Assembly: GCF_030013595.1 (NCBI RefSeq)
Contig: NZ_CP122768.1
Strand: one strand, 5' to 3'
Source of the DNA: Escherichia coli
GTDB lineage: Bacteria; Pseudomonadota; Gammaproteobacteria; Enterobacterales; Enterobacteriaceae
Length of the DNA: 64,000 nt
Below are positions 13,714 through 60,417 of this stretch, piece after piece (position 1 is the first letter of the stretch; every line of letters starts with the position of its first letter). The position numbers and the translations under genes were made by a program. Below the pieces are notes generated by a model. That model was not told where the DNA came from, made no database searches, and saw only the letters and a program-made list of their open reading frames with translations.

Positions 13714-16076
<2,363 letters not shown>

Positions 16077-32958: not shown

Positions 32959-33082
32959 CATTTTTTAACTGTTCTACCAAAATTTGCGCTATCTCAATTT
33001 GGGCCAGGAAAGCATAACTTAGACTTTCAAGGTTAATTATTTTCCTGGTTTATATTTGTGAAGCATAACGGTGGAGTTAGTG

Positions 33083-39727: not shown

Positions 39728-39784
39728 TACTCACTTATTGCTTTTCAAACAAAATGTCATGCCAGAATTTATGGTTGTAGTGGG

Positions 39785-40811
39785 TTATATTTTTTCGATC
39801 TCGACCAGATTAGTGTGCTGCGGGTTTCCCTTCGCCAGTGGTGAAGGGCGCAGAGTGGTTAGCGTATTCACACAGCCGCCATGGTCGATTTTATCGCCAG
39901 ACATATTGGCCTCGTGCCAGGCTCCCTGGCCCATAGCGCTAACCCCAGGGAGAATGCGTGGTGTTACTTTGGCTGGTAGCCGAACTTCGCCACGATGGTT
40001 AAACACCCGCACCATATCGCCGTTGGCAATCCCACGTTTCTGTGCATCTATAGGGTTGATCCACACCTCCTGACGGCAGGCTTCCTTCAGGACATCAATA
40101 TTGCCGTAGGTCGAGTGGGTACGGGATTTGTAATGGAAACCAAACAGTTGCAGTGGGAAGGTTCTACGTTCAGGGGAGTCCCAGCCTTCAAAGGTTGAGG
40201 CATAAACTGGCAGTGGGCTTATCACTTCATCTTTTTCCAGTTCCCAGGTACGGGCAATTTCCGCCAGCTTGCTGGAATAAATTTCAATCTTACCGGAAGG
40301 CGTTTTAAGTGGATTTGCCTCGGGGTCGTCACGAAATGCTTTGTAGGCGACAAAATGACCATTGGGATCTTTACGCTTATAGATACCCATTTTTTTCAGT
40401 TCGTCGTAAGACGGTAACGCCGGATCTTTGGCAAGCATTTTGGCGTACAGATGTTGTAACCATTGTTCCTGCGTGCGACCTTCTGTGAACTTTTGATAGA
40501 CGTCAGGTCCAAGACGTTTCGCGACTTCACTCAGGATCCAGTAAATCGGTTTGCGTTCGAATTTTTCGCTGGTGACTGGCTGAAGGAAAATGAGATATCC
40601 CATGTTACCTGCGTAGTCGTTAGGAATAATATCTTCCTGCTCAACGGTCATCAGGTCTGGCAGCAGAATGTCGGCATATTTTGCCGATGAGGTCATAAAG
40701 TTTTCGATGACCACAATCATTTCGCATTTCGATTCGTCCTGCAGAATTTCATGCGTTTTGTTGATGTCAGAATGCTGATTAACCAGGGTATTTCCCGCGT
40801 AGTTCCAGATG
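39785..40811 (-). pseudogene. ynfE: ynfE 3' fragment (codons from about IWNYAGNTL to the C-terminus), separated from its 5' part by a 9.4-kb insertion
   Basis: Translation aligns residue-by-residue with the C-terminal half of YnfF; homology begins exactly at the 11-bp repeat 40801-40811; the track ORF 39785..40951 is a chimera with insert-derived N-terminus. Confidence 0.85.
40801..40811 (+). repeat. left copy of 11-bp direct repeat AGTTCCAGATG (att core or target-site duplication)
   Basis: Identical 11-mer at 50242-50252; joining the flanks restores the in-frame ynfE sequence ...VPIKFIWNYAGNTL... Confidence 0.8.
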
Positions 40812-40876
40812 GACTCCACTGTCAGACGGATGGACGGACTTGAAGTAGTTGACTCAACGCTACTTAAGGTCCTGAT

Positions 40877-42485
40877 ATGACTGACATTAACTATGATAAT
40901 ACTGTATATCCATCCAGCTCTTTCTCTGGGTCTCCCTATCTGTATGGGCAAGTCTACACCTCAAGTCCTGACACAAGGCTGACACAAATCAATCTACTCA
41001 GCGTAGCTAAGCCTCAGTTAGTCCGTAGAGCCAATGGTCGATATACTATCCGCTTCAGACTCAAGGGACAGACCACACCGTTTCTTTCAGTATCGACCCG
41101 AAGCACAGACAGGAGAGTAGCCACAATGCGTCAGAGAGAGCTTGCAGCCACAGCTAAGGCCTTCATGTTGGATAGGCCTGAAGTCTCACTACAGGAGCTT
41201 ACAGAGCATCTCCGGTCTATGGCTGAGCAGTTCCTGACAGACGCTAGTGACGATTACTGGAATGGACTTGAGGTCGCTACTTTGGTGGACGAGAAGTCCA
41301 ACCTGAAGGAGCTAGCCGCTACGCAAGCCTTGAGTCTGGACCAGCAGAAGGGCATAAGGTTAGCGCTTGAAGTCCTGACCGCAGCACAGCAGAGGGTAGA
41401 TACTGGTGATACGTCCAGTCTAATCAAGCTGATTGGTGGTGGCGTAAGCCAGCTTACTGATGGAGATGACAATAACCTTACTAATAACTCAACTATATGC
41501 GACTCTACGTTGATTCTGAGGAACGAGCAGGGGGTCAGCCCGCAAGTATTCACGAGAGAGCGCCAACCATCTGTAGTTTTTTCAAGCCTAGTGTCCTCAC
41601 TGCTGGCTGAGAAGGTCCAGACCCTGAAGTCCTCCAGCTACAAGGACCTGTCGTCCTCACTGAATACCGTCTCTCGGTTTCTGCCTGAAGATATGGACCT
41701 GATGTCCCGCTCTGAGTGGCTGGCAGTGAGGGACGCTATGCTGGCTGCTGAGGTGAGACCATCGACAATCAACAAGCTGCTGACCAAAGCGAAGATGTGT
41801 CTCGATTATGGCCTGATGAATGGGCAACTTGAGGGCCGCAACCCTATTGAACGGATGAAGCTGACCAAGGATACCGACTCCAAGCGCAGAGCGTTCACAG
41901 ACGAGGAGCTGGAGAGACTTCTGGTCCGTGTTGAGGCTGAGTATCAGTTCACACGACACACGGCTCACACGACCTCTGAGGCCCGTAGATGGGCGTCTCT
42001 GGTGTCTGTGGTCACTGGCGCGAGGTCTGCTGAGGTCTGCCACCTGACTAAACGTGACGTTGTAACCTTGGACAATGGACTGGTCTGTATCGACATCAAT
42101 GAAGATGGGGACGGGAAGTCTGTGAAGAACAAACATTCAGTCCGACTTGTGCCGTTAACCGATGGGGCCTGTGGTTTCAGCCTGAAGTCCTTCCTCAAAT
42201 GGGTAGACACTCAGCCTGCTGATGGTCCCCTCTTTGGTATGACTCCGAGTGCCTACTCTAGTTGGTTTAACTCTAGGGTCCTGACTGAGGCCCTAGGAGA
42301 CGCTGAGAACGTTTCTCCACAGTCTGAGACATTGGCTGGCGACCCGAATGAAAGAGCGTGGAGTCAATCTGGTGGACGCTCAAGGCATCTTAGGTCACAG
42401 CAGTCAGTCCATTACGTATGACCTGTACGGGAAAGGACACGCTGTTGGTAGGCTGGCTGAGGTGCTGAAGACAGCTTTACTTTAA
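40877..42485 (+). pseudogene. tyrosine recombinase/integrase with apparent 1-nt frameshift upstream of box II
   Basis: ORF 40877-42421 contains box I (VVTGARSAEVCHLTKRDV) but ends out of frame; the HSLRHWLATRM...LGHSSQSITYDLYGKGH catalytic His-Arg-His-Tyr region is in another frame (42297-42485). True start is probably downstream of 40877, since arm-type repeats lie at 40968-40987. Confidence 0.6.
40968..40987 (+). repeat. two 11-bp-spaced direct repeats CTGACACAA (putative integrase arm-type sites, left arm)
   Basis: CTGACACAAGG and CTGACACAAAT in tandem; same motif recurs three times at the right end. Confidence 0.5.
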
Positions 42486-42562
42486 GTAGGAAGACCCAAG
42501 GTGGAGACCATATACGGCTTGATGGTTGAGACCTTGGGTCACTGAAGTCTGACTGAAGTTAG

Positions 42563-42603
42563 GGAGGGTGATAATAATCATAATCCCTCCTGACTATAGG
42601 CCC
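42563..42603 (+). promoter_or_regulatory. hairpin (GGAGGG-16 nt-CCCTCC) followed by T7-class promoter-like motif CTGACTATAGGCCC
   Basis: Direct reading of sequence; TATAGG core shared with motifs at 42801-43474. Confidence 0.35.
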
Positions 42604-42644
42604 ACTGGTTCGCCTTCGGCTGTCCGACTCTAAGTCTGTCTGTG

Positions 42645-42776
42645 GTCTTATTTAAACTGGTTCCCTAACTCAGGTCCTCCAACTTGGTGTCTTATTTAAA
42701 CTGGTTCCCTAACTCAGGTCCTCCAACTTGGTGTCTTATTTAAACTGGTTCCCTAACTCAGGCCCCTCCAAATTTC
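42645..42776 (+). repeat. three tandem copies of a 44-bp repeat (GTCTTATTTAAACTGGTTCCCTAACTCAGGTCCTCCAACTTGGT)
   Basis: Units start at 42645, 42689 and 42733; first two identical, third diverges in its last 14 nt. Confidence 0.85.
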
Positions 42777-42800
42777 GTTGTCTGTCAGCGACTTAAATAT

Positions 42801-42855
42801 CCCCTCACCTTAGAAGAGTTTAGGGTTCAGACCCTTAACTATCACCTTAGGAGAG
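42801..42855 (+). promoter_or_regulatory. pair of single-subunit phage RNAP promoter-like motifs (CCCCTCACCTTAGAAGAG and AACTATCACCTTAGGAGAG)
   Basis: Resemble SP6/T3-class promoters (…CACTATAGAAGAG / …CCCTCACTAAAGGGAGA); located just upstream of the 166-aa ORF. Confidence 0.35.
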
Positions 42856-42901
42856 ACGGGCCGTCCTCCACCCAATCAAAACCTTAAGAGGAGGACCATA
42901 C

Positions 42902-43402
42902 ATGGCTATTAAAATTCAGTGCTACACCGAGTCCGACAATGCGGCTTTCTTCGGTGACGATTCCGACCTCCAGCACCAGCTACCAGCACCGACATATGAC
43001 GAACCTAAGGCCCGCACAGGTAAGCCTCCTGTGGTCATCGACAACCGGGCTGTCCGTGCGTGGCTGATTGAGACTGGGTGTCTCTCCTATACGCAGCTTG
43101 TTGAGGCGTACCCGTGGGCTGACGATGTGTTCACAGGACTCTCACGGGCTACCAGTGGCGCTGTCGGTGCTGGACTCCCGGTATCTAAGGCGTACCTGTT
43201 CTCTGCCTTATATGGCACCAACGACATCTTCTCCCGTAACACAGCCAAATCCTACGCTGACATCACTGGGCGTTCACCGTCTCCTCGCTACCTGCGCCAC
43301 GTCAATAGCGTGCTTCAGGCTACGGCTGTGAATCTGGCTAAGGTTCTGAAGGACCGAGGGGATTTCACATGGTGGGATTACAACGATCAGTGCCTGTCCT
43401 GA
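42902..43402 (+). CDS. hypothetical protein (166 aa)
   Basis: ORF with GAGGAGG Shine-Dalgarno 8 nt upstream; no recognisable motifs. Confidence 0.55.
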   Translation: MAIKIQCYTESDNAAFFGDDSDLQHQLPAPTYDEPKARTGKPPVVIDNRAVRAWLIETGCLSYTQLVEAYPWADDVFTGLSRATSGAVGAGLPVSKAYLFSALYGTNDIFSRNTAKSYADITGRSPSPRYLRHVNSVLQATAVNLAKVLKDRGDFTWWDYNDQCLS

Positions 43403-43426
43403 GAGCCGCGCCAGCTCTGGGCTGGA

Positions 43427-43474
43427 ATACCCCCTCACTATAGGGACACCCCCTAAACTATCACTATAGGGGGG
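43427..43474 (+). promoter_or_regulatory. pair of T3/T7-class promoter-like motifs (CCCCCTCACTATAGGGACA and AACTATCACTATAGGGGGGA)
   Basis: First motif matches the T3 promoter core CCCTCACTAAAGGGA at 14 of 15 positions and the T7 core TCACTATAGGGA exactly; no RNAP gene in the element. Confidence 0.45.
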
Positions 43475-43620
43475 ACCAACCTTGCCTCTGCTTCTGATGC
43501 GTCAGAACACGCGAGGTCCTCCCGACATTAAGTATTCTCCTAAGTAATCAAGGCCCGTGACCGCCTCTGACAGACCTCCTGTATCGACCTCCAGCTCGTT
43601 AGCGTTCTTTAGTCGTCTCG

Positions 43621-43628
43621 GTTAGTAG
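43621..43628 (+). repeat. 8-bp target-site duplication GTTAGTAG (left) of IS66-family copy 1
   Basis: Identical octamer at 46329-46336 immediately outside the IS ends. Confidence 0.8.
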
Positions 43629-43712
43629 GTAACCGGCTCATTTAAACCGTCTGGTCTGTTTCCTCCGGCTCTACAAAAATAATGTCCATCATTTTTTAAT
43701 GGACACTATCGT

Positions 43713-44360
43713 ATGAAACACCGGACCTGGATCACTGAAGCTTTACGTCTTCACTTTGAAGAACATTTACCCCGGGTTGTGGCCGGGCGTCGCCTGGGTG
43801 TACCAAAATCAACAGTTTGTAGTATGTTCGTGCGCTTTCGGAGAGCTGGCCTTTCGTGGCCTTTGCCCGCAGGCATGTCGGAGCAGGAACTTGATGCCTG
43901 CCTTTACGGACAATTTTCCACGGTACCAGTCGTACGTCCTGAAAGCACCGTTATATCCGAAGCCCCCGTGGTAAAAAAACGTCCCCGGCGGCCCAACTTC
44001 CCTTATGAGTTTAAAATCGCCTTAGTGGAGCAGTCACTGCAGCCCGGAGCCTGTGTGGCGCAGATCGCCCGGGAAAACGGAATCAACGATAACCTGCTCT
44101 TCAACTGGCGCCATCAATACCGGAAAGGTGGCCTGCTGCCTTCCGGAAAAAATATGCCGGCACTGCTTCCCGTGACGTTAACGCCGGAGCCGGATAATAA
44201 AATCCCGGCCCCCGCACAGGAACCAGAGCAGATAAATACACCGTCCGACAGTCTGTGTTGTGAGCTGGTTCTGCCGGCCGGAACTCTCAGGCTTAAAGGT
44301 AAACTGACGCCGGCGTTATTACAGACACTTATCCGCGAAATAAAAGGGAGCAGCCACTGA
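43713..44360 (+). CDS. IS66-family accessory protein (orf1, HTH)
   Basis: 215 aa first ORF of the IS. Confidence 0.8.
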   Translation: MKHRTWITEALRLHFEEHLPRVVAGRRLGVPKSTVCSMFVRFRRAGLSWPLPAGMSEQELDACLYGQFSTVPVVRPESTVISEAPVVKKRPRRPNFPYEFKIALVEQSLQPGACVAQIARENGINDNLLFNWRHQYRKGGLLPSGKNMPALLPVTLTPEPDNKIPAPAQEPEQINTPSDSLCCELVLPAGTLRLKGKLTPALLQTLIREIKGSSH

Positions 44361-44707
44361 TGATATCTCTCCCTGCAGGTTCGCGTATCTGGCTGGTTGC
44401 AGGTATCACCGATATGCGAAATGGCTTTAACGGCCTGGCATCAAAAGTTCAGAACGTCCTGAAGGATGACCCGTTCTCCGGACACCTGTTCATCTTCCGC
44501 GGACGCCGGGGTGACCAGATAAAAGTGTTGTGGGCTGACAGTGACGGACTGTGCCTCTTCACCAAACGCCTGGAGCGGGGCCGCTTCGTCTGGCCAGTCA
44601 CCCGTGACGGCAAGGTGCACCTTACTCCGGCTCAGTTATCCATGCTTCTTGAAGGTATCAACTGGAAGCACCCGAAACGAACGGAACGCGCTGGAATCCG
44701 CATATAA
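44360..44707 (+). CDS. IS66-family Orf2 (TnpB-like)
   Basis: 115 aa MISLPAGSRIWLVAGITDMRNGFNGLA..., typical IS66 orf2; start overlaps orf1 stop. Confidence 0.85.
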   Translation: MISLPAGSRIWLVAGITDMRNGFNGLASKVQNVLKDDPFSGHLFIFRGRRGDQIKVLWADSDGLCLFTKRLERGRFVWPVTRDGKVHLTPAQLSMLLEGINWKHPKRTERAGIRI

Positions 44708-44726
44708 CCCGTTGTAAAGTGAGGAT

Positions 44727-46298
44727 ATGGACACCTCACTTGCTCATGAGAACGCCCGCCTGCGGGCACTGTTGCAGACGCAACAGGACACCATCCGCCA
44801 GATGGCTGAATACAACCGCCTGCTCTCACAGCGGGTGGCGGCTTATGCTTCCGAAATCAACCGGCTGAAGGCGCTGGTTGCGAAACTGCAACGTATGCAG
44901 TTCGGTAAAAGCTCAGAAAAACTTCGTGCAAAAACCGAACGGCAGATACAGGAAGCACAGGAGCGAATCAGCGCACTTCAGGAAGAAATGGCGGAAACGC
45001 TGGGTGAGCAATATGACCCGGTACTGCCATCCGCCCTGCGCCAGTCTTCAGCCCGTAAACCGTTACCGGCCTCACTTCCCCGTGAAACCCGGGTTATCCG
45101 GCCGGAAGAGGAATGCTGTCCTGCCTGTGGTGGTGAACTCAGTTCTCTGGGATGTGATGTGTCAGAGCAACTGGAGCTTATCAGCAGCGCCTTTAAGGTT
45201 ATCGAAACACAACGTCCGAAACAGGCCTGTTGCCGGTGCGACCATATCGTACAGGCACCAGTACCTTCAAAACCCATTGCACGCAGTTATGCCGGAGCGG
45301 GGCTTCTGGCCCATGTTGTCACCGGGAAATATGCAGACCATCTGCCGTTATACCGCCAGTCAGAAATATACCGTCGTCAGGGAGTGGAGCTGAGCCGTGC
45401 CACACTGGGGCGCTGGACAGGTGCTGTTGCTGAACTGCTGGAGCCGCTGTATGACGTCCTGCGCCAGTATGTGCTGATGCCCGGTAAAGTCCATGCTGAT
45501 GATATCCCCGTCCCGGTCCAGGAGCCGGGCAGCGGTAAAACCCGGACAGCCCGGCTGTGGGTCTACGTCCGTGATGACCGTAACGCCGGTTCACAGATGC
45601 CCCCGGCGGTCTGGTTCGCGTACAGTCCGGACCGGAAAGGTATCCATCCACAAAATCACCTGGCCGGTTACAGCGGTGTGCTTCAGGCCGATGCTTACGG
45701 TGGTTACCGGGCGTTATACGAATCCGGCAGAATAACGGAAGCCGCGTGTATGGCTCATGCCCGGAGAAAAATCCACGATGTGCATGCAAGAGCGCCCACC
45801 TACATCACCACGGAAGCCCTGCAGCGTATCGGTGAACTGTATGCCATCGAGGCAGAGGTCCGGGGCTGTTCAGCAGAACAGCGTCTGGCGGCAAGAAAAG
45901 CCAGAGCCGCGCCACTGATGCAGTCACTGTATGACTGGATACAGCAACAGATGAAAACACTGTCGCGTCACTCAGATACGGCAAAAGCGTTCGCATACCT
46001 GCTGAAACAGTGGGATGCACTGAACGTGTACTGCAGTAATGGCTGGGTGGAAATCGACAACAACATCGCAGAGAACGCCTTACGGGGAGTGGCCGTAGGC
46101 CGGAAAAACTGGATGTTCGCGGGTTCCGACAGCGGTGGTGAACATGCGGCGGTGTTGTACTCGCTGATCGGCACATGCCGTCTGAACAATGTGGAGCCAG
46201 AAAAGTGGCTGCGTTACGTCATTGAACATATCCAGGACTGGCCGGCAAACCGGGTACGCGATCTGTTGCCCTGGAAAGTTGATCTGAGCTCTCAGTAA
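44727..46298 (+). CDS. IS66-family transposase (orf3)
   Basis: 523 aa with N-terminal leucine-zipper-like region, CxxC...CxxC zinc finger and DDE region. Confidence 0.85.
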
Positions 46299-46328
46299 AT
46301 ATCAATACGGTTCTGACGAGTCGCTTAC

Positions 46329-46336
46329 GTTAGTAG
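46329..46336 (+). repeat. 8-bp target-site duplication GTTAGTAG (right) of IS66-family copy 1
   Basis: Matches 43621-43628. Confidence 0.8.
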
Positions 46337-46582
46337 CTCGTCTACTCACTACATTGGCTTAAGTCTATCACCGCTCACCATCTGGAGTCCTTACAGCTCG
46401 TCCTGACATGCGGTCTCACCTTATATGCACATGGAGAACATGGCCACTCCAGACCAACACTAATCAACATTAACCCTATTCACTTTCGTTAAGCATTTTT
46501 TGGTGGGTCCGTTTGGATGCATTGAATAGGTGCGGACTCCACGTGGAGACAGAAAGTGCTTTACTAAAGGAGCATCCTTTAT

Positions 46583-46972
46583 ATGACTATTAAATCCATC
46601 GTTATCAACGGTAAGACCATCCTGTCTACACCTAACGCCATCAATGAGGGTGTCTGGTTCGACATGCTTGAGGTCCATCAAGCTGCTGGCTTGCCTGCTA
46701 ACAAGACGTTCTCACAGTGGCGCAGCCGACAGTCTCGTGCATTAGAAGAGGCTGGAGAGGTGTCGTTTGACAGTGTACAGAAGACCCTGTGTGGCAGCTT
46801 TGTGGCAGTGCTGGCCTACCTTATGTGGGCGGACCTTACTCTCTGGCTGGCGGTGGTTCGTTACGTTGCGTCTGAGACTATCGGCGTCCTGCCTGACCGC
46901 TTCAAGTCTATCGACGGTGATAACCCCGAGTTAGAAATGTCAGAGGATAACAGCGAGTGGGAGGACTTCTAA
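46583..46972 (+). CDS. KilA-N domain protein (129 aa)
   Basis: N-terminal pattern (INGKTI...NEGVWFDMLEV...GLPANKTFSQW) and hydrophobic WxxxLxxxL segment typical of KilA-N/APSES DNA-binding domains. Confidence 0.5.
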   Translation: MTIKSIVINGKTILSTPNAINEGVWFDMLEVHQAAGLPANKTFSQWRSRQSRALEEAGEVSFDSVQKTLCGSFVAVLAYLMWADLTLWLAVVRYVASETIGVLPDRFKSIDGDNPELEMSEDNSEWEDF

Positions 46973-46973
46973 G

Positions 46974-47714
46974 ATGACCATGAGCCAGCTTGAAGCATTA
47001 CCTATCGTCATCGAGGGTCATTCATTCATCTGCAACGACCAGCGCATGTGGAACCTGAACGAGATTCACCGAGTGTTAGGTCTTCCAGCAAGCAAGATGC
47101 CGTCTGAGTGGAATAACAAGATTCGCACACAACTTGACCGCTCCGGAAATTTCCGGACCGTGAATGGTGACGGCGGTGGTACATGGGCGACCGAGGCTGG
47201 GACCGTGGCTTATGCTATGTGGGTCTCTACAGATTTCTACCTGATGGTCATCAATGCTTTCATCTTTATGCGTAACGACGCAATCGTCCGAGAGCGTGTA
47301 GCGGTCAAACAGGCTGACGAGGCTAACGCTAACCTCTCCATCGCAGCACCTAAGGCAGACATCTTTGACGGTCGTCTGACCAATGGTGGCTCTGTTCCGT
47401 GGAACTGGGCGTGTAAATCTTTGGGTCTTGCCCCGATGAAACTGAAAGAGGGCTTGAAGCGCTCCGGTAAGTTCGTCCAGAAGTGGAACCCTGACAGTTA
47501 CGCCGACGAGCTTCGACCTCAGGAGAAGGCGTTCAGTATTGGACTATTCGTCACTAAGTCAGTCATGGGTAAAGACACATGGCAGGTGACAGCTAAAGGC
47601 TACGCATGGATGCAGGGGAACGCCCAGAAGTGGAGAGAGCTAATAGCTGATGGTGACCGCTTAAAGGCTGCTGAGCGTCGAGCACAGAAGCGTCTTAACC
47701 GTGGAGGTAAGTAG
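46974..47714 (+). CDS. KilA-N domain protein with C-terminal extension (246 aa)
   Basis: Paralogous to upstream ORF (IEGHSFICNDQRMWNLNEIHRVLGLPASKMPSEW... GTWATEAGTVAYAMWVSTDFYLMV). Confidence 0.5.
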   Translation: MTMSQLEALPIVIEGHSFICNDQRMWNLNEIHRVLGLPASKMPSEWNNKIRTQLDRSGNFRTVNGDGGGTWATEAGTVAYAMWVSTDFYLMVINAFIFMRNDAIVRERVAVKQADEANANLSIAAPKADIFDGRLTNGGSVPWNWACKSLGLAPMKLKEGLKRSGKFVQKWNPDSYADELRPQEKAFSIGLFVTKSVMGKDTWQVTAKGYAWMQGNAQKWRELIADGDRLKAAERRAQKRLNRGGK

Positions 47715-47716
47715 TC

Positions 47717-47941
47717 ATGGCTATGATTGACCCTCGTACACCTATCGGCAAAGCGACCCTTCGTTACCGTGGTCTGCCTACACGTCATCTGCTGTCCCTG
47801 CTGAGACTTGGAGTCGAAGACCCCGAACGCCCGTACTACAGTCGAGACGAGCTAATAGCTATGTTGGTGGACCGTGATTTAGACAATCAGTTACGCCGAG
47901 CCTTTGCGAAGTCTAGCGCAGCTAGGGAACTGGAGTCCTGA
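47717..47941 (+). CDS. hypothetical protein (74 aa)
   Basis: ORF tightly coupled to upstream gene (3-nt gap). Confidence 0.4.
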   Translation: MAMIDPRTPIGKATLRYRGLPTRHLLSLLRLGVEDPERPYYSRDELIAMLVDRDLDNQLRRAFAKSSAARELES

Positions 47942-48146
47942 ACCTTATGGGGCAGAAAAACCGCCGCATAAACCTATCGTCTGCTGACCGAAGTTTCGAC
48001 GCATTGAGCCAGACGGAAAAGTTTTCCTGCTGGTAAACCACCTTAATTTAAACACCTTTTGAGAATGACCGATGCGGGGAGACCCGTAGGCATAACTGTG
48101 TCTGCGATACCGATAGTTCTCACCTTCTCAATAGGAGTACTACCTT

Positions 48147-48638
48147 ATGTTATTCAACAACAACGACTGGAAACTATCAGTCACCGACATCAATCCCTAT
48201 GAAAATACTGTGAGTCTGGACGGTCAGTCCTATCCGCTGTCTCTGGCGATTAAGACCCTGATTCCGGGCTACCTGTCAGGCTTACCGTCCACCAGCCGCG
48301 AGGCGATGGAGTTACTGGAAGCTCTGGCTGAAGCTGGCGTGTCCATTGGCAACTTCTTCAGTAATGACCTGATGACCGCCTATGGTCGCCGCCAGCAGAA
48401 CAAGCGAGCCGAAGCTGAGCGTATTGCTAAAGAGCAGCGCATTCAGGCTGAGCGTATGCGTGAAGAGAACATGACTGATGCAGAGTGGCAGAAAGAGCTA
48501 CAGCGCCGTGAACAGGTCAAAGCTGAACGCCGGACCTATGGTGAGCACCTCCGCAGTGCTACCCATTCCGCTGGGCGCTCCCGTGCTTCTATGGTCGCTG
48601 ACATTGAGTCCACGGACAACTGGATGGACAGCCTCTAA
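48147..48638 (+). CDS. hypothetical coiled-coil protein (163 aa)
   Basis: C-terminal half highly charged and heptad-like (RRQQNKRAEAERIAKEQRIQAERMREENMTDAEWQKELQRREQVKAERR). Confidence 0.5.
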   Translation: MLFNNNDWKLSVTDINPYENTVSLDGQSYPLSLAIKTLIPGYLSGLPSTSREAMELLEALAEAGVSIGNFFSNDLMTAYGRRQQNKRAEAERIAKEQRIQAERMREENMTDAEWQKELQRREQVKAERRTYGEHLRSATHSAGRSRASMVADIESTDNWMDSL

Positions 48639-48704
48639 GACACAGACACACAAGTGGTCCTGACCTGATGTCGGGACCCACAGTATCCAAACTAATTTAG
48701 GAGA

Positions 48705-49700
48705 TTGATTATTATGACGATTAAAGACGCTTTCCAGTTCGGCATTGAGCCAGTACGTATCAGCGACACCGACAACATTCAGATTAACGAAGGTTTGCCA
48801 ACTAACGCAGACCCGCAGGTCTATGCCCTCCAGTTAGCTAAGACGGTTAAGGCTATGCTGAACGGTGTACTTAAAGACGCTCAAGAGAACATCCCGTTCC
48901 CTGTAGAAGTCCTGCCGACCCGCAATAGCCTGCCTACTCCAATCATTGCTCACACTCTGGCTGATCGCTCTGTGGTCGTTCCTGTCCGTGGTGGTAAGCG
49001 ACCTGAAGTCGTGACCGTTCCGTCTGGACAAGAAATCGTGGTCGAACCAATCGAGCAGGCTATTCTCATCTCTGAGCAGACCAAGCTCTGGGACGCCAAG
49101 TCATCCACCGGATTCACTCAGGGCACACTTCAGCAGGACGCTATGAACATCTGTGAGAATGTGGTCCGTACCATCAACGCTCGCATGGTCGACGTTCTGG
49201 AGTCCTCCAAACTGTTGAAGACCGTAGAGCTGCCAGTCCTGACTGGAAGCCTGACCACTAAGGCAGACGCTATCATGGACGCTCTGTTTGAGAACACCGA
49301 GTCCTCTTTCGGCTCTGAAGTGTCTGATTACGGCATCATCGCCCATGAGTCCCAACTGAAAGCGCTGTCCCGTCTGGCAGCTAAACAGGGCTTCTCTGGT
49401 GGAGACGCTATCGTGGATATGCTGGGTACCGACATCGCCTATTACAACGGTGAAGACAAGGGTGTATTCATGCTGGCTAAACGCTTCACGGCCCTGAGCT
49501 TCGGCTGCTTCCGTCACGACGGTGAGAATATTACGGTCGTCCTTTCACGTGATGGCGACTCTCAGTCCCACGACTTGGAAATCCTCGGTAAAGTGTTCGT
49601 TGTCGCTGAAGCTGCTACGACCATCAAGATGGGCACTGGCTCAGCTACTGCCGTCCTGCCTGTAGTCAAACGCCTGAAGTTCACCAAGACCGAAGCGTAA
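48705..49700 (+). CDS. hypothetical protein (331 aa), possible structural/morphogenetic protein
   Basis: Largest non-integrase ORF of the element; follows the coiled-coil ORF; AGGAG Shine-Dalgarno upstream; no motif I can assign. Confidence 0.5.
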   Translation: MIIMTIKDAFQFGIEPVRISDTDNIQINEGLPTNADPQVYALQLAKTVKAMLNGVLKDAQENIPFPVEVLPTRNSLPTPIIAHTLADRSVVVPVRGGKRPEVVTVPSGQEIVVEPIEQAILISEQTKLWDAKSSTGFTQGTLQQDAMNICENVVRTINARMVDVLESSKLLKTVELPVLTGSLTTKADAIMDALFENTESSFGSEVSDYGIIAHESQLKALSRLAAKQGFSGGDAIVDMLGTDIAYYNGEDKGVFMLAKRFTALSFGCFRHDGENITVVLSRDGDSQSHDLEILGKVFVVAEAATTIKMGTGSATAVLPVVKRLKFTKTEA

Positions 49701-49844
49701 GACCAATGGGTAAGAGGTAAGTCTGGACTGAATATCAGCAGGACTTCAGGTGGTGGCCTGTCACTGTGATTAACTAACTACGGTCTGGACCAATGGTCTG
49801 GGCCTTATTACTGGTATGGTAGTATACAGGCGAAGGAGGACCCA

Positions 49845-50000
49845 ATGTCTATGACTTCCGCAGACCTAAGGTCCCTCCTGACTCTGGTCTATAAACTCGT
49901 GTTCCTCTCTGTGGGTCTCTACATGGTTCTCTCTGGTCGACTCGGTGTGGATGTGTTCGACACTCTGTCTAAGGCTGTGGGTGGACTTCTAGGTCCTTAG
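49845..50000 (+). CDS. small single-pass membrane protein (51 aa)
   Basis: ATG with AGGAGGA Shine-Dalgarno; MSMTSADLRSLLTLVYKLVFLSVGLYMVLSGRLGVDVFDTLSKAVGGLLGP; below ORF-track cutoff. Confidence 0.4.
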   Translation: MSMTSADLRSLLTLVYKLVFLSVGLYMVLSGRLGVDVFDTLSKAVGGLLGP

Positions 50001-50153
50001 GTTTGGACTCACAGTGGGACCGATGATTTCTGACAGAAAAATGTGAATGACCATCTAATACATTAAGCCAGCAGACTTCCCCCCATAGTCCCGCCTCAAG
50101 TCCAGACCGAGGCCACCGGGGGTCCTGACCAGCCGTCTAGACATCCCGTCTAA

Positions 50154-50186
50154 TGACACAAGTCTGGCACAAAGCCTGACACAAAG
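50154..50186 (+). repeat. three 11-bp-spaced direct repeats TGACACAAG / TGGCACAAAG / TGACACAAAG (putative arm-type sites, right arm)
   Basis: Same motif and orientation as 40968-40987 at the opposite end of the element. Confidence 0.5.
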
Positions 50187-50241
50187 TCCTTGACTCAATG
50201 CAGGACCTCAGGCCTACTAAGGGTCCGCTTCAAGTCCTTGA

Positions 50242-50252
50242 AGTTCCAGATG
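50242..50252 (+). repeat. right copy of 11-bp direct repeat AGTTCCAGATG
   Basis: Identical to 40801-40811. Confidence 0.8.
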
Positions 50253-51652
50253 AACTTAATGGGCACATCCAGTTTATCTTTGCCGCGGACGCCGTCGCGG
50301 ATTGCCGTCATTTGCGGGCCATGATCGATAGCATCCGTCCAGCTGAAGCAGGAGATTGACGTTTTGACCGGATTATCCAGCACCGGTAGGCGTTCTATGG
50401 TAATGGTATAGGTCGATTCACGCGCGCCACTATTCCCGCCGCTGATGCCGACATTGCCCGTCAAAATAGGCAACATAGCAATAGCGCGTGCGGTCAGCTC
50501 ACCGTTTGCCTGGCGTTGCGGCCCCCAGCCCTGGCAGATATAAGCGGGTTTTGCTGTGCCAATTTCACGCGCCAGTTTGATGATACGGTCCACCGGGATA
50601 CCGGTAATTTGCGAAGCCCACTGCGGCGTTTTCGCTGTTTTATCGTCACCTTCACCAAGAATATAGGCTTTATAGTGACCATTTTTTGGTGCATCTGCGG
50701 GTAAGGTTTTTTCGTCATAGCCGACGCAGTATTTATCAAGAAAAGGTTGATCAACGAGATTTTCGTTAATCAATACCCAGGCAATACCCGCAACCAGCGC
50801 GGCATCGGTGCCCGGGCGAATAGGAAGCCATTCGTCTTCACGACCGGCAGCCGTATCGGTATATCGCGGATCGATAACAATCATTTTTGCGTTCGATTTC
50901 TCGCGCGCTTTTTCAAGAAGATAAGTGATGCCACCACCGCTCATGCGGGTTTCTGCCGGGTTGTTACCAAACATCACGACCAGCTTGCTGTTTTCAATAT
51001 CCGTGGTGCTGTTGCCATCATTACTGCCGTAGGTGTAGGGCATGGCACAGGAAATTTGCGCGGTGCTGTAGGAGCCATACTGGTTGAGTGAGCCGCCGTA
51101 GCAGTTCATCAGGCGTTTGACCGCCGAGGCGGATGGCGAAGAGCGGGTCATATTGCCGCCAACAATCCCCGAAGAGTACTGAATATATACAGCCTCATTG
51201 TCATATTGTTCGACGGTTTTTTTCAGGCTACTGGCGATAGTATCCAGGGCTTCATCCCAGCTAATCCGTTCGAATTTGCCTTCGCCGCGTTTGCCCACGC
51301 GTTTCATTGGGTAATTCAAGCGGTCGGGATGATTAATACGCCGACGGATGGAGCGACCGCGCAAACAGGCGCGTACTTGATGATTGCCATACTCATCGCT
51401 GCCGGTGTTGTCAGTTTCCACCCAGGTCACTTCATTATCTTTAACATGCAGACGAAGTGCACAGCGGCTACCACAGTTGACGGAACAGGCACCCCAGACC
51501 ACTTTCTCGCTGGCCTGTTGTACTGCTGCCGCTGCACTGCGCAGGGTGAACGGTAAAGAAAAACCGCCTGCAGCCAGCGCCAGAGAACCTATCGCGGTAG
51601 ATTTAACGAGTGTTCTGCGGCTGATGCCCACCATTTGTTCATTTTTGGACAT
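50242..51652 (-). pseudogene. ynfE: ynfE 5' fragment (Tat signal and N-terminal about 465 codons)
   Basis: MSKNEQMVGISRRTLVKSTAIGSLALAAGG twin-arginine leader; homology to YnfF ends at ...LDVPIKFIWN where the insert begins. Confidence 0.85.
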
Positions 51653-51751
51653 AACTCACTCCCTGTTCTTTATCGTTATATAAAAGTTTATATATTGAAT
51701 ATTTAGCGCGCTAACAATAGAGGGAGTCTACCTATTTTGGGTTAAGAATTA

Positions 51752-51765
51752 TTAATCCATATCAA
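51752..51765. promoter_or_regulatory. FNR-like site TTAAT-CCAT-ATCAA upstream of ynfE
   Basis: 9 of 10 match to TTGAT-N4-ATCAA, about 107 bp upstream of the ynfE ATG; the ynfEFGH-dmsD operon is known to be anaerobically induced. Confidence 0.35.
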
Positions 51766-51850
51766 TAGAAGGGTATGAGTAATAAAGTGGGATTATGTTG
51801 TATGTTCAAATCGCCGGATGTGTCGTATCCGGCGTGCTGTCGATAATGTG

Positions 51851-52156
51851 TTACTGCGGTTCGGCAGGCGCGCCATCCTGGGTAGACTGCGCGGGAGCAG
51901 AGACGTTACCGCTGGTGGTGCGGGTGTAGAGAATTTTATGCGTATCATTAGCGCAATGCCCGACGACCTGGGAATCAGGCTGATCAACCTGGTCATTGGG
52001 TACAATACTTAACGTGAAGCTGCTTTCGGGAACGCCATTATTGATAATGCGCTGTGATATATCGCTCTGTATGCGCTCACAGGATCCCGGCGCGGCGAGT
52101 ACCGCGGGTGAGGCGAGGGCGAGCAGAAGCGCGGCACAGCAGGTTGAGAGTTTCAT
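51851..52156 (-). CDS. ynfD: DUF1161 periplasmic protein YnfD
   Basis: Start MKLSTCCAALLLALASPAVLA (signal peptide), 101 aa. Confidence 0.8.
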   Translation of the reverse strand: MKLSTCCAALLLALASPAVLAAPGSCERIQSDISQRIINNGVPESSFTLSIVPNDQVDQPDSQVVGHCANDTHKILYTRTTSGNVSAPAQSTQDGAPAEPQ

Positions 52157-52263
52157 CATAAGCTCCTTACGCGAAGATAACTTCTTTAAGCATAGCATTT
52201 AACGTGTAAAGTACTGTATTTGCTACTATGATTGAGAATCATCTCTACTCTCTGGTGACTGTT

Positions 52264-52974
52264 GTGAAATACAAATTACTGCCATGCTTACTCGCGATAT
52301 TCCTCACAGGATGTGACCGCACAGAGGTAACACTTTCATTTACCCCTGAGATGGCCAGTTTCTCTAATGAATTCGATTTTGATCCGCTGCGTGGTCCGGT
52401 AAAAGATTTCACTCAGACATTAATGGATGAGCAAGGTGAAGTGACGAAACGTGTTTCTGGGACTTTGTCGGAAGAAGGCTGTTTTGATTCACTCGAATTA
52501 CTGGATCTGGAAAATAATACCGTGGTCGCTCTGGTACTGGACGCCAATTATTACCGTGATGCCGAGACGCTGGAGAAGAGAGTACGTTTACAGGGAAAAT
52601 GCCAGCTAGCAGAATTACCTTCTGCCGGGGTGAGTTGGGAAACCGATGATAATGGCTTCGTGATTAAAGCCAGCAGCAAACAGATGCAGATGGAATATCG
52701 CTATGATGATCAGGGGTATCCGCTGGGTAAAACCACGAAAAGTAACGACAAAACATTATCTGTCAGCGCCACGCCATCAACGGATCCGATCAAAAAATTA
52801 GATTACACAGCGGTTACTTTACTGAATAATCAACGGGTTGGTAATGTAAAACAGAGCTGTGAATATGACAGTCACGCCAATCCGGTGGACTGTCAGCTAA
52901 TCATTGTTGATGAAGGAGTAAAACCCGCCGTCGAACGGATTTACACCATCAAAAATACTATCGATTATTATTAA
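52264..52974 (+). CDS. ynfC: UPF0257 lipoprotein YnfC
   Basis: GTG start giving MKYKLLPCLLAIFLTGC lipobox; 236 aa. Confidence 0.75.
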   Translation: MKYKLLPCLLAIFLTGCDRTEVTLSFTPEMASFSNEFDFDPLRGPVKDFTQTLMDEQGEVTKRVSGTLSEEGCFDSLELLDLENNTVVALVLDANYYRDAETLEKRVRLQGKCQLAELPSAGVSWETDDNGFVIKASSKQMQMEYRYDDQGYPLGKTTKSNDKTLSVSATPSTDPIKKLDYTAVTLLNNQRVGNVKQSCEYDSHANPVDCQLIIVDEGVKPAVERIYTIKNTIDYY

Positions 52975-56975: not shown

Positions 56976-57012
56976 AAGAGTCATACGTGTCAACTATTTG
57001 ATAAATATTAAA

Positions 57013-57801
57013 TTAATTTTTCATTGCTTCGTTATGGGGCATGGTTGGGGCAAACTCGCTTAACTGTGTATTTAACAAAGCTACCTGTGCATTATTGTTT
57101 TCAGACATCCATTTTCCGTATACCTGAAATACCATTTGCGCATCTGCATGGCCCATCTGGTTTGCTATAAATGCCGGGTTAGCACCAGCTGTCAGCGACC
57201 AGCAGGCATAAGTATGTCTCGACTGATATGATTTTCGATGGCGGAGTCCGGCACGTTTTATCGCTGCGTCCCACATCTGCCTTATTGAGTCAACGGTAAA
57301 ATGGTCACCATAATTTTTTACTCTCGCTGACACTTCAGGTTGAAAAACAAAGGTGCATTTATGTTTTTCTGTTCTGCCATACTCTCTGAGGTGAACATCA
57401 ATGATATGCTCTTTGCTCAGTCTCGTTAATGTCATCTGACTCCGGAGAGCGTCGATTGCTGGCTTAATAAGATGAATGACCCGATTGGTTCCCGCCTGTG
57501 TTTTTGGTACCGTGAAACGGTCTTTTGCTAAATTTCTCCTGATCATCATTGTTCCATTTTTCAGATCTATGTCCTCCCATCCAAGTGCACACAGCTCACC
57601 AGGGCGAACGCCAGTATAAACAGAAACACACCATAAATTTTTGGCTTGCTGATTTCTGCACGCATCGATAAGACGGATGAATTCCTCCCGCGAAAGAGGA
57701 TCCGGAATGGTTCTTGATTCCTTTAATGGCGAGATCCCCTTAAACGGGTTATCTGCCAGGTAACCGTTATCAACACCAAACTGGAACACGGCGTTAAGAT
57801 T
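57013..57801 (-). pseudogene. lambdoid prophage tyrosine integrase, 3' (catalytic) fragment, separated from 5' part by IS66 copy 2
   Basis: Contains integrase motifs (RPGELCALGWEDID, HIIDVHLREYGRTEK, SRHTYACWSLTAG, HADAQMVFQVYGKW); reading continues in frame from 60502-61016 across the 8-bp TSD. Confidence 0.8.
57794..57801 (+). repeat. 8-bp target-site duplication TTAAGATT of IS66-family copy 2
   Basis: Identical octamer at 60502-60509 outside the other IS end. Confidence 0.8.
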
Positions 57802-57831: not shown

Positions 57832-59403
57832 TTACTGAGAGCTCAGATCAACTTTCCAGGGCAACAGATCGCGTACCCGGTTTGCCGGCCAGTCCTGGAT
57901 ATGTTCAATGACGTAACGCAGCCACTTTTCTGGCTCCACATTGTTCAGACGGCATGTGCCGATCAGCGAGTACAACACCGCCGCATGTTCACCACCGCTG
58001 TCGGAACCCGCGAACATCCAGTTTTTCCGGCCTACGGCCACTCCCCGTAAGGCGTTCTCTGCGATGTTGTTGTCGATTTCCACCCAGCCATTACTGCAGT
58101 ACACGTTCAGTGCATCCCACTGTTTCAGCAGGTATGCGAACGCTTTTGCCGTATCTGAGTGACGCGACAGTGTTTTCATCTGTTGCTGTATCCAGTCATA
58201 CAGTGACTGCATCAGTGGCGCGGCTCTGGCTTTTCTTGCCGCCAGACGCTGTTCTGCTGAACAGCCCCGGACCTCTGCCTCGATGGCATACAGTTCACCG
58301 ATACGCTGCAGGGCTTCCGTGGTGATGTAGGTGGGCGCTCTTGCATGCACATCGTGGATTTTTCTCCGGGCATGAGCCATACACGCGGCTTCCGTTATTC
58401 TGCCGGATTCGTATAACGCCCGGTAACCACCGTAAGCATCGGCCTGAAGCACACCGCTGTAACCGGCCAGGTGATTTTGTGGATGGATACCTTTCCGGTC
58501 CGGACTGTACGCGAACCAGACCGCCGGGGGCATCTGTGAACCGGCGTTACGGTCATCACGGACGTAGACCCACAGCCGGGCTGTCCGGGTTTTACCGCTG
58601 CCCGGCTCCTGGACCGGGACGGGGATATCATCAGCATGGACTTTACCGGGCATCAGCACATACTGGCGCAGGACGTCATACAGCGGCTCCAGCAGTTCAG
58701 CAACAGCACCTGTCCAGCGCCCCAGTGTGGCACGGCTCAGCTCCACTCCCTGACGACGGTATATTTCTGACTGGCGGTATAACGGCAGATGGTCTGCATA
58801 TTTCCCGGTGACAACATGGGCCAGAAGCCCCGCTCCGGCATAACTGCGTGCAATGGGTTTTGAAGGTACTGGTGCCTGTACGATATGGTCGCACCGGCAA
58901 CAGGCCTGTTTCGGACGTTGTGTTTCGATAACCTTAAAGGCGCTGCTGATAAGCTCCAGTTGCTCTGACACATCACATCCCAGAGAACTGAGTTCACCAC
59001 CACAGGCAGGACAGCATTCCTCTTCCGGCCGGATAACCCGGGTTTCACGGGGAAGTGAGGCCGGTAACGGTTTACGGGCTGAAGACTGGCGCAGGGCGGA
59101 TGGCAGTACCGGGTCATATTGCTCACCCAGCGTTTCCGCCATTTCTTCCTGAAGTGCGCTGATTCGCTCCTGTGCTTCCTGTATCTGCCGTTCGGTTTTT
59201 GCACGAAGTTTTTCTGAGCTTTTACCGAACTGCATACGTTGCAGTTTCGCAACCAGCGCCTTCAGCCGGTTGATTTCGGAAGCATAAGCCGCCACCCGCT
59301 GTGAGAGCAGGCGGTTGTATTCAGCCATCTGGCGGATGGTGTCCTGTTGCGTCTGCAACAGTGCCCGCAGGCGGGCGTTCTCATGAGCAAGTGAGGTGTC
59401 CAT
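57832..59403 (-). CDS. IS66-family transposase (orf3)
   Basis: 523 aa product identical to 44727-46298. Confidence 0.85.
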
Positions 59404-59422
59404 ATCCTCACTTTACAACGGG

Positions 59423-59770
59423 TTATATGCGGATTCCAGCGCGTTCCGTTCGTTTCGGGTGCTTCCAGTTGATACCTTCAAGAAGCATGGATAACTGAGC
59501 CGGAGTAAGGTGCACCTTGCCGTCACGGGTGACTGGCCAGACGAAGCGGCCCCGCTCCAGGCGTTTGGTGAAGAGGCACAGTCCGTCACTGTCAGCCCAC
59601 AACACTTTTATCTGGTCACCCCGGCGTCCGCGGAAGATGAACAGGTGTCCGGAGAACGGGTCATCCTTCAGGACGTTCTGAACTTTTGATGCCAGGCCGT
59701 TAAAGCCATTTCGCATATCGGTGATACCTGCAACCAGCCAGATACGCGAACCTGCAGGGAGAGATATCAT
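59423..59770 (-). CDS. IS66-family Orf2 (TnpB-like)
   Basis: 115 aa identical to copy 1. Confidence 0.85.
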   Translation of the reverse strand: MISLPAGSRIWLVAGITDMRNGFNGLASKVQNVLKDDPFSGHLFIFRGRRGDQIKVLWADSDGLCLFTKRLERGRFVWPVTRDGKVHLTPAQLSMLLEGINWKHPKRTERAGIRI

Positions 59771-60417
59771 CAGTGGCTGCTCCCTTTTATTTCGCGGATA
59801 AGTGTCTGTAATAACGCCGGCGTCAGTTTACCTTTAAGCCTGAGAGTTCCGGCCGGCAGAACCAGCTCACAACACAGACTGTCGGACGGTGTATTTATCT
59901 GCTCTGGTTCCTGTGCGGGGGCCGGGATTTTATTATCCGGCTCCGGCGTTAACGTCACGGGAAGCAGTGCCGGCATATTTTTTCCGGAAGGCAGCAGGCC
60001 ACCTTTCCGGTATTGATGGCGCCAGTTGAAGAGCAGGTTATCGTTGATTCCGTTTTCCCGGGCGATCTGCGCCACACAGGCTCCGGGCTGCAGTGACTGC
60101 TCCACTAAGGCGATTTTAAACTCATAAGGGAAGTTGGGCCGCCGGGGACGTTTTTTTACCACGGGGGCTTCGGATATAACGGTGCTTTCAGGACGTACGA
60201 CTGGTACCGTGGAAAATTGTCCGTAAAGGCAGGCATCAAGTTCCTGCTCCGACATGCCTGCGGGCAAAGGCCACGAAAGGCCAGCTCTCCGAAAGCGCAC
60301 GAACATACTACAAACTGTTGATTTTGGTACACCCAGGCGACGCCCGGCCACAACCCGGGGTAAATGTTCTTCAAAGTGAAGACGTAAAGCTTCAGTGATC
60401 CAGGTCCGGTGTTTCAT
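59770..60417 (-). CDS. IS66-family accessory protein (orf1)
   Basis: 215 aa identical to copy 1. Confidence 0.8.
   Translation of the reverse strand: MKHRTWITEALRLHFEEHLPRVVAGRRLGVPKSTVCSMFVRFRRAGLSWPLPAGMSEQELDACLYGQFSTVPVVRPESTVISEAPVVKKRPRRPNFPYEFKIALVEQSLQPGACVAQIARENGINDNLLFNWRHQYRKGGLLPSGKNMPALLPVTLTPEPDNKIPAPAQEPEQINTPSDSLCCELVLPAGTLRLKGKLTPALLQTLIREIKGSSH

Follow-up and report, generated by a model that had tools for sequence, protein, structure and literature searches.

The ynfE locus

We analysed a stretch of 64,000 nucleotides from Escherichia coli (contig NZ_CP122768.1 of RefSeq assembly GCF_030013595.1), referred to below as the window, with particular attention to the 198-bp spacer between ynfD and ynfE. 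Both of these genes are read from the minus strand, the A of the ynfE start codon lying at 51652, and ynfC is found beyond ynfD on the plus strand from 52228 onwards; the neighbouring genes were named by their identity of more than 99% to annotated E. coli chromosomes. The product of the ynfEFGH-dmsD operon is a selenate/tellurate reductase, a paralogue of DMSO reductase. Positions of the features discussed here are collected in Table 1, together with the grounds on which each was placed.

In this genome the ynfE gene is in two pieces. Homology to intact ynfE runs over 50242-51799 and is then found again at 39658-40815, so that the gene is split after codon ~470. Between the two halves lies an island of 9426 bp (40816-50241), each junction being marked by a copy of a 15-bp direct repeat (AGTTCCAGATGGACT at 40801-40815 and AGTTCCAGATGAACT at 50242-50256). 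The island carries a tyrosine-type integrase, for which the match is to a PHROG family and for which no Pfam match was obtained, an IS66-family element, a KilA-N/Ant-like gene and three ORFs without a family match. A second IS66-family copy, oriented opposite to that of the island, occurs beyond rspB at 57832-60417. Downstream of the split gene, ynfF, ynfG, ynfH and dmsD are intact.

On the other side of the promoter region, 3' of the ynfD stop codon, the sequence can form a hairpin (GCCGGAU-N7-AUCCGGC) with a computed RNA folding energy of -14 kcal/mol and a z-score of -4.4. This hairpin probably ends the ynfD transcript and thereby bounds the ynfE promoter region upstream. A simple terminator scan of 51500-52300 called no terminator, the hairpin having been missed because of its weak T-run. 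A search of 51400-52300 against Rfam found no RNA family, and hence no known riboswitch in the ynfE leader.

Table 1. Features of the ynfD-ynfE region and of the island within ynfE, with the basis for each assignment. Promoter positions are relative to the inferred transcription start.
Feature	Position	Strand	Remarks and basis
ynfD (DUF1161)	51851..52156	-	gene upstream of the ynfE promoter, same strand; RefSeq annotation of near-identical genomes
Hairpin, probable ynfD terminator	51812..51834	-	3' of the ynfD stop; RNA fold
FNR-binding site	51752..51765	-	TTGATatggATTAA in ynfE orientation; sequence, K-12 identity, weight matrix, conservation
Candidate NarL/NarP 7-2-7 element	51729..51744	-	TAACCCAaaATAGGTA; centre -18.5, overlaps the -10; cross-genus conservation
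Candidate -10 hexamer	51725..51730	-	TAGACT, at -12..-7; 4/6 to TATAAT; position derived from the published -40.5
Inferred transcription start	51718	-	A; 66-nt leader; from -40.5 in Table 1 of Myers et al. and the K-12 spacing
ModE-like operator	51672..51699	-	TTCAATATATAaactttTATATAACGAT; ynfE leader, +20..+47; consensus match, cross-genus conservation
ynfE, 5' part	50195..51652	-	ORF running into the island
KilA-N/Ant-like gene	46974-47714	opposite to ynfE	in the island
IS66-family element	43713-46298	opposite to ynfE	in the island; ORFs of 215 aa and 523 aa
Tyrosine-type integrase	40877-42421	opposite to ynfE	514 aa; PHROG 1, E = 6e-24
Three ORFs without family match	42902-43402, 48147-48638, 48705-49700	opposite to ynfE	in the island

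The FNR site of the ynfE promoter

Read directly from the plus strand, 51752-51765 is TTAATCCATATCAA, that is TTAAT-N4-ATCAA, letter for letter as given by an initial annotation of the window, made from the sequence alone, which had proposed a pair of FNR-like half-sites here. The reverse complement is TTGATATGGATTAA, or in the orientation of ynfE the dyad TTGATatggATTAA, a 14-bp element with a 4-bp spacer that agrees with the FNR consensus TTGAT-N4-ATCAA at 9 of 10 positions; the exception is the promoter-proximal half-site, which is ATTAA rather than ATCAA (T for C). Its centre at 51758.5 is 106.5 nt 5' of the ynfE ATG, against "about -107" in the annotation. We scored the window with an FNR weight matrix trained on 62 other ChIP-bound sites (Myers et al. 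2013, Table S6), the ynfE site itself having been omitted from the training set. The element scored 13.5 bits, which ranks second in the 64 kb and corresponds to the 19th percentile of the 62 ChIP-bound sites (range 11.8-21.2). The loose pattern TTRAT-N4-ATYAA gave two matches in the window, against 0.33 expected.

The same 14-mer has already been described in K-12. TTGATATGGATTAA is listed as the FNR site for ynfE at position 1655980, with a PatSer score of 13.01 (Myers et al. 2013, PMC3688515, Table S6), and is flagged there as lying under an FNR ChIP-seq peak (Tables S5 and S6). In Table 1 of that study ynfEFGH-dmsD has a single FNR site, centred at -40.5 from a known start, is placed in the category 'directly activated by FNR', and shows increases in both sigma-70 occupancy and expression in the absence of oxygen. 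The sigma-70 ChIP signal at ynfE was 709 anaerobically and 27 aerobically (Table S2), the aerobic/anaerobic expression ratio was 0.027 (Table S12), and in the comparison of wild type with fnr, ynfE was classed as FNR-activated (Table S8). The start sites behind Table 1 were taken from EcoCyc and Kim et al. (2012); the ynfE start was not found in those supplements of Kim et al. that we searched, so the start position used here rests on Table 1 of Myers et al.

Aligned with K-12 MG1655 from the FNR site to the ynfE ATG, the window has no indel and a single differing base, at 51733 (-15). With its spacing unchanged from K-12, the window shares the published -40.5 geometry. The two promoters thus share the 14-mer, its distance to the ATG, the -10 region and the leader; what sets the present genome apart from K-12 is the change from G to A at 51733 and the splitting of ynfE by the island. 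The G is also present in six other E. coli strains, while Escherichia sp. MOD1-EC7003 has A at the equivalent position.

The distance to the transcription start had been named beforehand in the initial annotation as the point on which its reading could fail, and at -40.5 it falls inside the class II range of -41.5 +/- 4. Its appeal to anaerobic induction of the operon likewise accords with the K-12 data, the window having the same 14-mer as the ChIP-bound site at an FNR-activated operon. By its sequence, then, 51752-51765 is the already documented FNR site of the ynfE promoter, an ordinary and known element, and the reading from sequence alone had placed it correctly, re-identifying a regulatory site of a well-studied operon. 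For this particular strain, occupancy by FNR, the position of the start and dependence on FNR are carried over from K-12, and we would expect them to hold here on the strength of the near-identical promoter sequence. Some novelty is to be found only in side observations, namely the 7-2-7 element, the island in ynfE and the ModE-like operator, which are taken up below.

Predicted class II architecture

With the start placed in this way, the hexamer TAGACT lies at the class II distance from the FNR site, and there is no usable -35 element. A TAnnnT/C hexamer is found at the matching offset in orthologous ynfE promoters. A simple two-hexamer sigma-70 promoter scan of 51500-52300 called no promoter, which is expected where a promoter depends on an activator and so gives no added support. 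We put the probability that the motif is the FNR operator of a class II, FNR-dependent sigma-70 promoter of ynfEFGH-dmsD at about 93%. In such a promoter, dimeric [4Fe-4S]-FNR would bind TTGATatggATTAA in the absence of oxygen, centred 40.5 bp upstream of the start and thus overlapping the -35 position, and would recruit RNA polymerase to the weak -10 hexamer, presumably through the usual class II contacts.

This arrangement resembles that of the class II promoters of dmsA and narG, in which a single FNR dyad ~41 bp upstream (sites at -41.5) likewise replaces the -35 element. As in operons of the dmsA/narG type, of which dmsABC is the paralogous operon, ynfE pairs an anaerobic molybdoenzyme with nitrate repression through NarL. 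The ynfE promoter differs from those of dmsA and narG in the position of the centre (-40.5, not -41.5) and in the proximal half-site (ATTAA, not ATCAA).

Just 3' of the inferred start, at ~51700-51714, there is a short conserved block, TTAGCGCGCTAA in E. coli, which in Enterobacter, Leclercia, Kosakonia and Silvania takes the form ATTAGC-N5-7-CTAAT, an inverted repeat of variable spacing.

Output of the promoter in a genome with a split ynfE

Another way to view the promoter in this genome is as an intact relic, in which FNR binds and fires the promoter as in K-12 but the product is a transcript for truncated YnfE followed by the antisense of the island, so that no working ynfEFGH-dmsD operon is controlled. 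We judge this to be somewhat better than an even bet. The ORF that begins at the ynfE start codon has 485 codons against 808 in the intact gene, the homology breaks off at 50242 and resumes only at 40815, with the 15-bp direct repeats at the two ends, and the large ORFs of the island are all on the opposite strand. Nor is the junction peculiar to this strain: it is common to 150 complete E. coli genomes, and both halves of ynfE are annotated as pseudogenes in RefSeq. However, the genes ynfF, ynfG, ynfH and dmsD remain whole, and read-through or a different promoter may still allow their expression; the ynfE promoter itself, one base off K-12, shows no decay. Moreover, the interruption qualifies the output only, and leaves the identification of the site uncontradicted. 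With ynfE broken by the island, the normal output of the promoter is probably lost or reduced, and we consider that the FNR site is probably still active here but feeding a truncated gene. In some 150 sequenced E. coli genomes, then, the ynfE promoter would drive a broken gene.

Conservation of the FNR site

An alternative to the FNR operator is that AT-rich intergenic DNA has produced the motif by chance and that it has no function. One half-site is non-consensus, and 64 kb of first-order random sequence would be expected to hold about one site scoring at least as high; indeed, matches of similar score occur at 46668-46681 (TTGAGGTCCATCAA, in the island 5' of the KilA-N gene), at 56998-57011 (TTGATAAATATTAA, just beyond the end of the ORF at 57013-57789) and at 15864-15877, the first two probably by chance and the third probably without meaning. 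By itself, therefore, the motif is unremarkable, and it is the location before ynfE that is improbable: within the 198-bp spacer only 0.003 such sites are expected. Against chance also stands the K-12 evidence, the same sequence being covered there by an FNR ChIP-seq peak, before an operon that FNR activates, and so does the retention of the half-sites over ~30 genera, among the matches listed, while the surrounding DNA diverges. We therefore regard a chance match as very improbable.

Lower still is the probability that CRP, which belongs to the same protein family, binds the motif in place of FNR: the two proteins recognise related dyads and share some of their sites, but TTGAT/TTAAT half-sites with a 4-bp spacer are of the FNR type and the K-12 site is occupied by FNR in ChIP-seq. 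Binding by CRP was rejected, the best match to the CRP consensus in the ynfD-ynfE spacer having 4 of 10 positions mismatched and being located elsewhere.

Retention of the FNR operator can be followed at two levels, within E. coli and across genera. A 40-mer with the site at its centre is present exactly in 3738 complete E. coli genomes and with one mismatch in 1555. Where the fetched E. coli strains differ, they do so in the N4 spacer (ATGG or GTGG) or in the flank (TTCTT or TTATT), the half-sites always being unchanged. One strain presents a different case: in E. coli CREC_5 (NZ_CM129825.1, 3846217-3846500) an IS2 element has entered the ynfE promoter within the distal half-site of the FNR operator, and as it replaces TTGAT and everything upstream, FNR activation there should be abolished.

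To compare genera we scanned a collection of species-representative genomes with a degenerate YnfE motif, WGACSVNCGSRCA, a selection independent of the FNR site. This gave at least 120 loci; those listed exclude E. coli proper, S. enterica subsp. enterica and Shigella, and 87 of them are directly preceded, on the same strand, by a YnfD homologue. With the window counted, the matches listed comprise 88 syntenic ynfD-ynfE loci, from ~30 enterobacterial genera; TTGAY-N4-RWTAA is found in 85 or more of these. The best weight-matrix match in the 260 bp 5' of the start codon is mostly 100-110 nt from the ATG among these matches, and when they are aligned on the FNR site, no columns of the region are better conserved than those of TTGA and TAA. 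TTGATATGGATTAA itself recurs in Escherichia, Intestinirhabdus and C. amalonaticus; other versions of the site are TTGACATGGATTAA in Salmonella, TTGATATGCATTAA in Citrobacter, TTGATGAGGATTAA in Enterobacter and Lelliottia, and TTGATATAAATTAA in Silvania.

The departure from consensus in the proximal half-site is conserved too. This half-site is ATTAA, GTTAA, GATAA or AATAA, so that T stands for the consensus C in 85 or more of the 88 orthologous promoters among those listed; Klebsiella, Raoultella and Pluralibacter have a degenerate half-site (GATAA) and low matrix scores. The kept T suggests that a deliberately weak FNR site, of sub-maximal affinity, has been selected for. Taken across genera, the footprint is that of a promoter layout, comprising an FNR dyad in which one half-site is imperfect, together with a NarL-type 7-2-7 element that covers the -10, which would be ancient in the Enterobacteriaceae.

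One other intergenic region of the window contains an FNR-like site: in the mlc-ynfK spacer, TTGCGCTATCTCAA at 32984-32997 scores 9.9 bits and lies ~80 nt 5' of the start of ynfK, a bioD paralogue. An FNR ChIP peak and FNR activation are recorded for ynfK by Myers et al. (2013; PMC3688515).

A candidate NarL/NarP element over the -10 hexamer

Three later papers that cite Xu, Busby and Browning (2009, J Bacteriol 191:3172) describe the ynfE promoter as FNR-activated and repressed by phospho-NarL. One of the three reproduces this behaviour for the ynfE promoter of E. coli Nissle, which responds only anaerobically, and then only without nitrate. Nitrate, acting via NarL, would thus counteract the activation of the ynfE promoter by FNR, and the candidate 7-2-7 element TAACCCAaaATAGGTA is placed where such an effect could be exerted, overlapping the -10 hexamer. 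Compared with TACYYMT-NN-AKRRGTA, TAACCCAaaATAGGTA has two mismatches, a match that by itself is no better than chance in the 64-kb window. However, among the 86 orthologous promoters listed, a 7-2-7 element with at most two mismatches is found 8-9 nt 3' of the FNR site in 67, compared with 1 of 1720 shuffles, and in 14 of the 86 the element is perfect. We accept the element only on account of this conservation across genera at a fixed offset, the single match being at chance level. It is likely the target of the published repression by nitrate and NarL, which would then operate by occlusion of the -10. The base at 51733, in which this genome differs from K-12, falls within the element.

NarL-like heptamers are also present 5' of the FNR site, TACTCAT at 51775-51781 and TACCCTT at 51769-51775. 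These are not conserved across genera, and we did not count them.

A ModE-like operator in the ynfE leader

Within the ynfE leader we noticed a further element, TTCAATATATAaactttTATATAACGAT, that resembles the operators of ModE. The E. coli ModE consensus is ATCGNTATATA-N6-TATATANCGAT (PMC545781), and TTCAATATATAaactttTATATAACGAT agrees with it at 18 of 20 positions and has the 6-bp spacer that the consensus calls for; none of 100 shuffles reached three or fewer mismatches. Among the matches listed, an element with at most five mismatches that starts 46-47 nt 5' of the ATG occurs at 17 loci, belonging to Escherichia, Salmonella, Citrobacter and Intestinirhabdus, and an equivalent element occurs in 0 of 550 shuffled controls. 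The orthologous elements are often nearer to the palindromic consensus than that of E. coli, for example TTCGCTATAGAgattaaTATATAGCGAT. Among the same listed matches, the element is absent from the ynfE loci of Enterobacter, Klebsiella and Kosakonia.

The ynfE element precedes a molybdoenzyme operon, as has been reported for dmsA, and dmsABC, the paralogous operon, has been reported to be controlled by ModE. The ynfE element differs from E. coli ModE operators in lying within the transcribed leader, which is unusual for an activating site. A link between ModE and ynfE was not found in the literature searched, and curated databases may already list one. It is only tentatively, and with the odds on balance against it, that we put forward a control region with three inputs, in which FNR at -40.5 and NarL/NarP at -18.5 would be joined by a ModE operator at +20..+47 coupling ynfE to molybdate. 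The ModE-like leader operator does, however, make a testable hypothesis, namely that this selenate/tellurate reductase is under molybdate control.

Elements of the same kind were also seen outside the syntenic loci: at four loci in Rahnella spp., non-syntenic operons resembling dmsA/ynfE have a ModE-like operator (for example CCCGTTATATAtgcagtAATATAGCGAA) ~200 nt 5' of the start codon.
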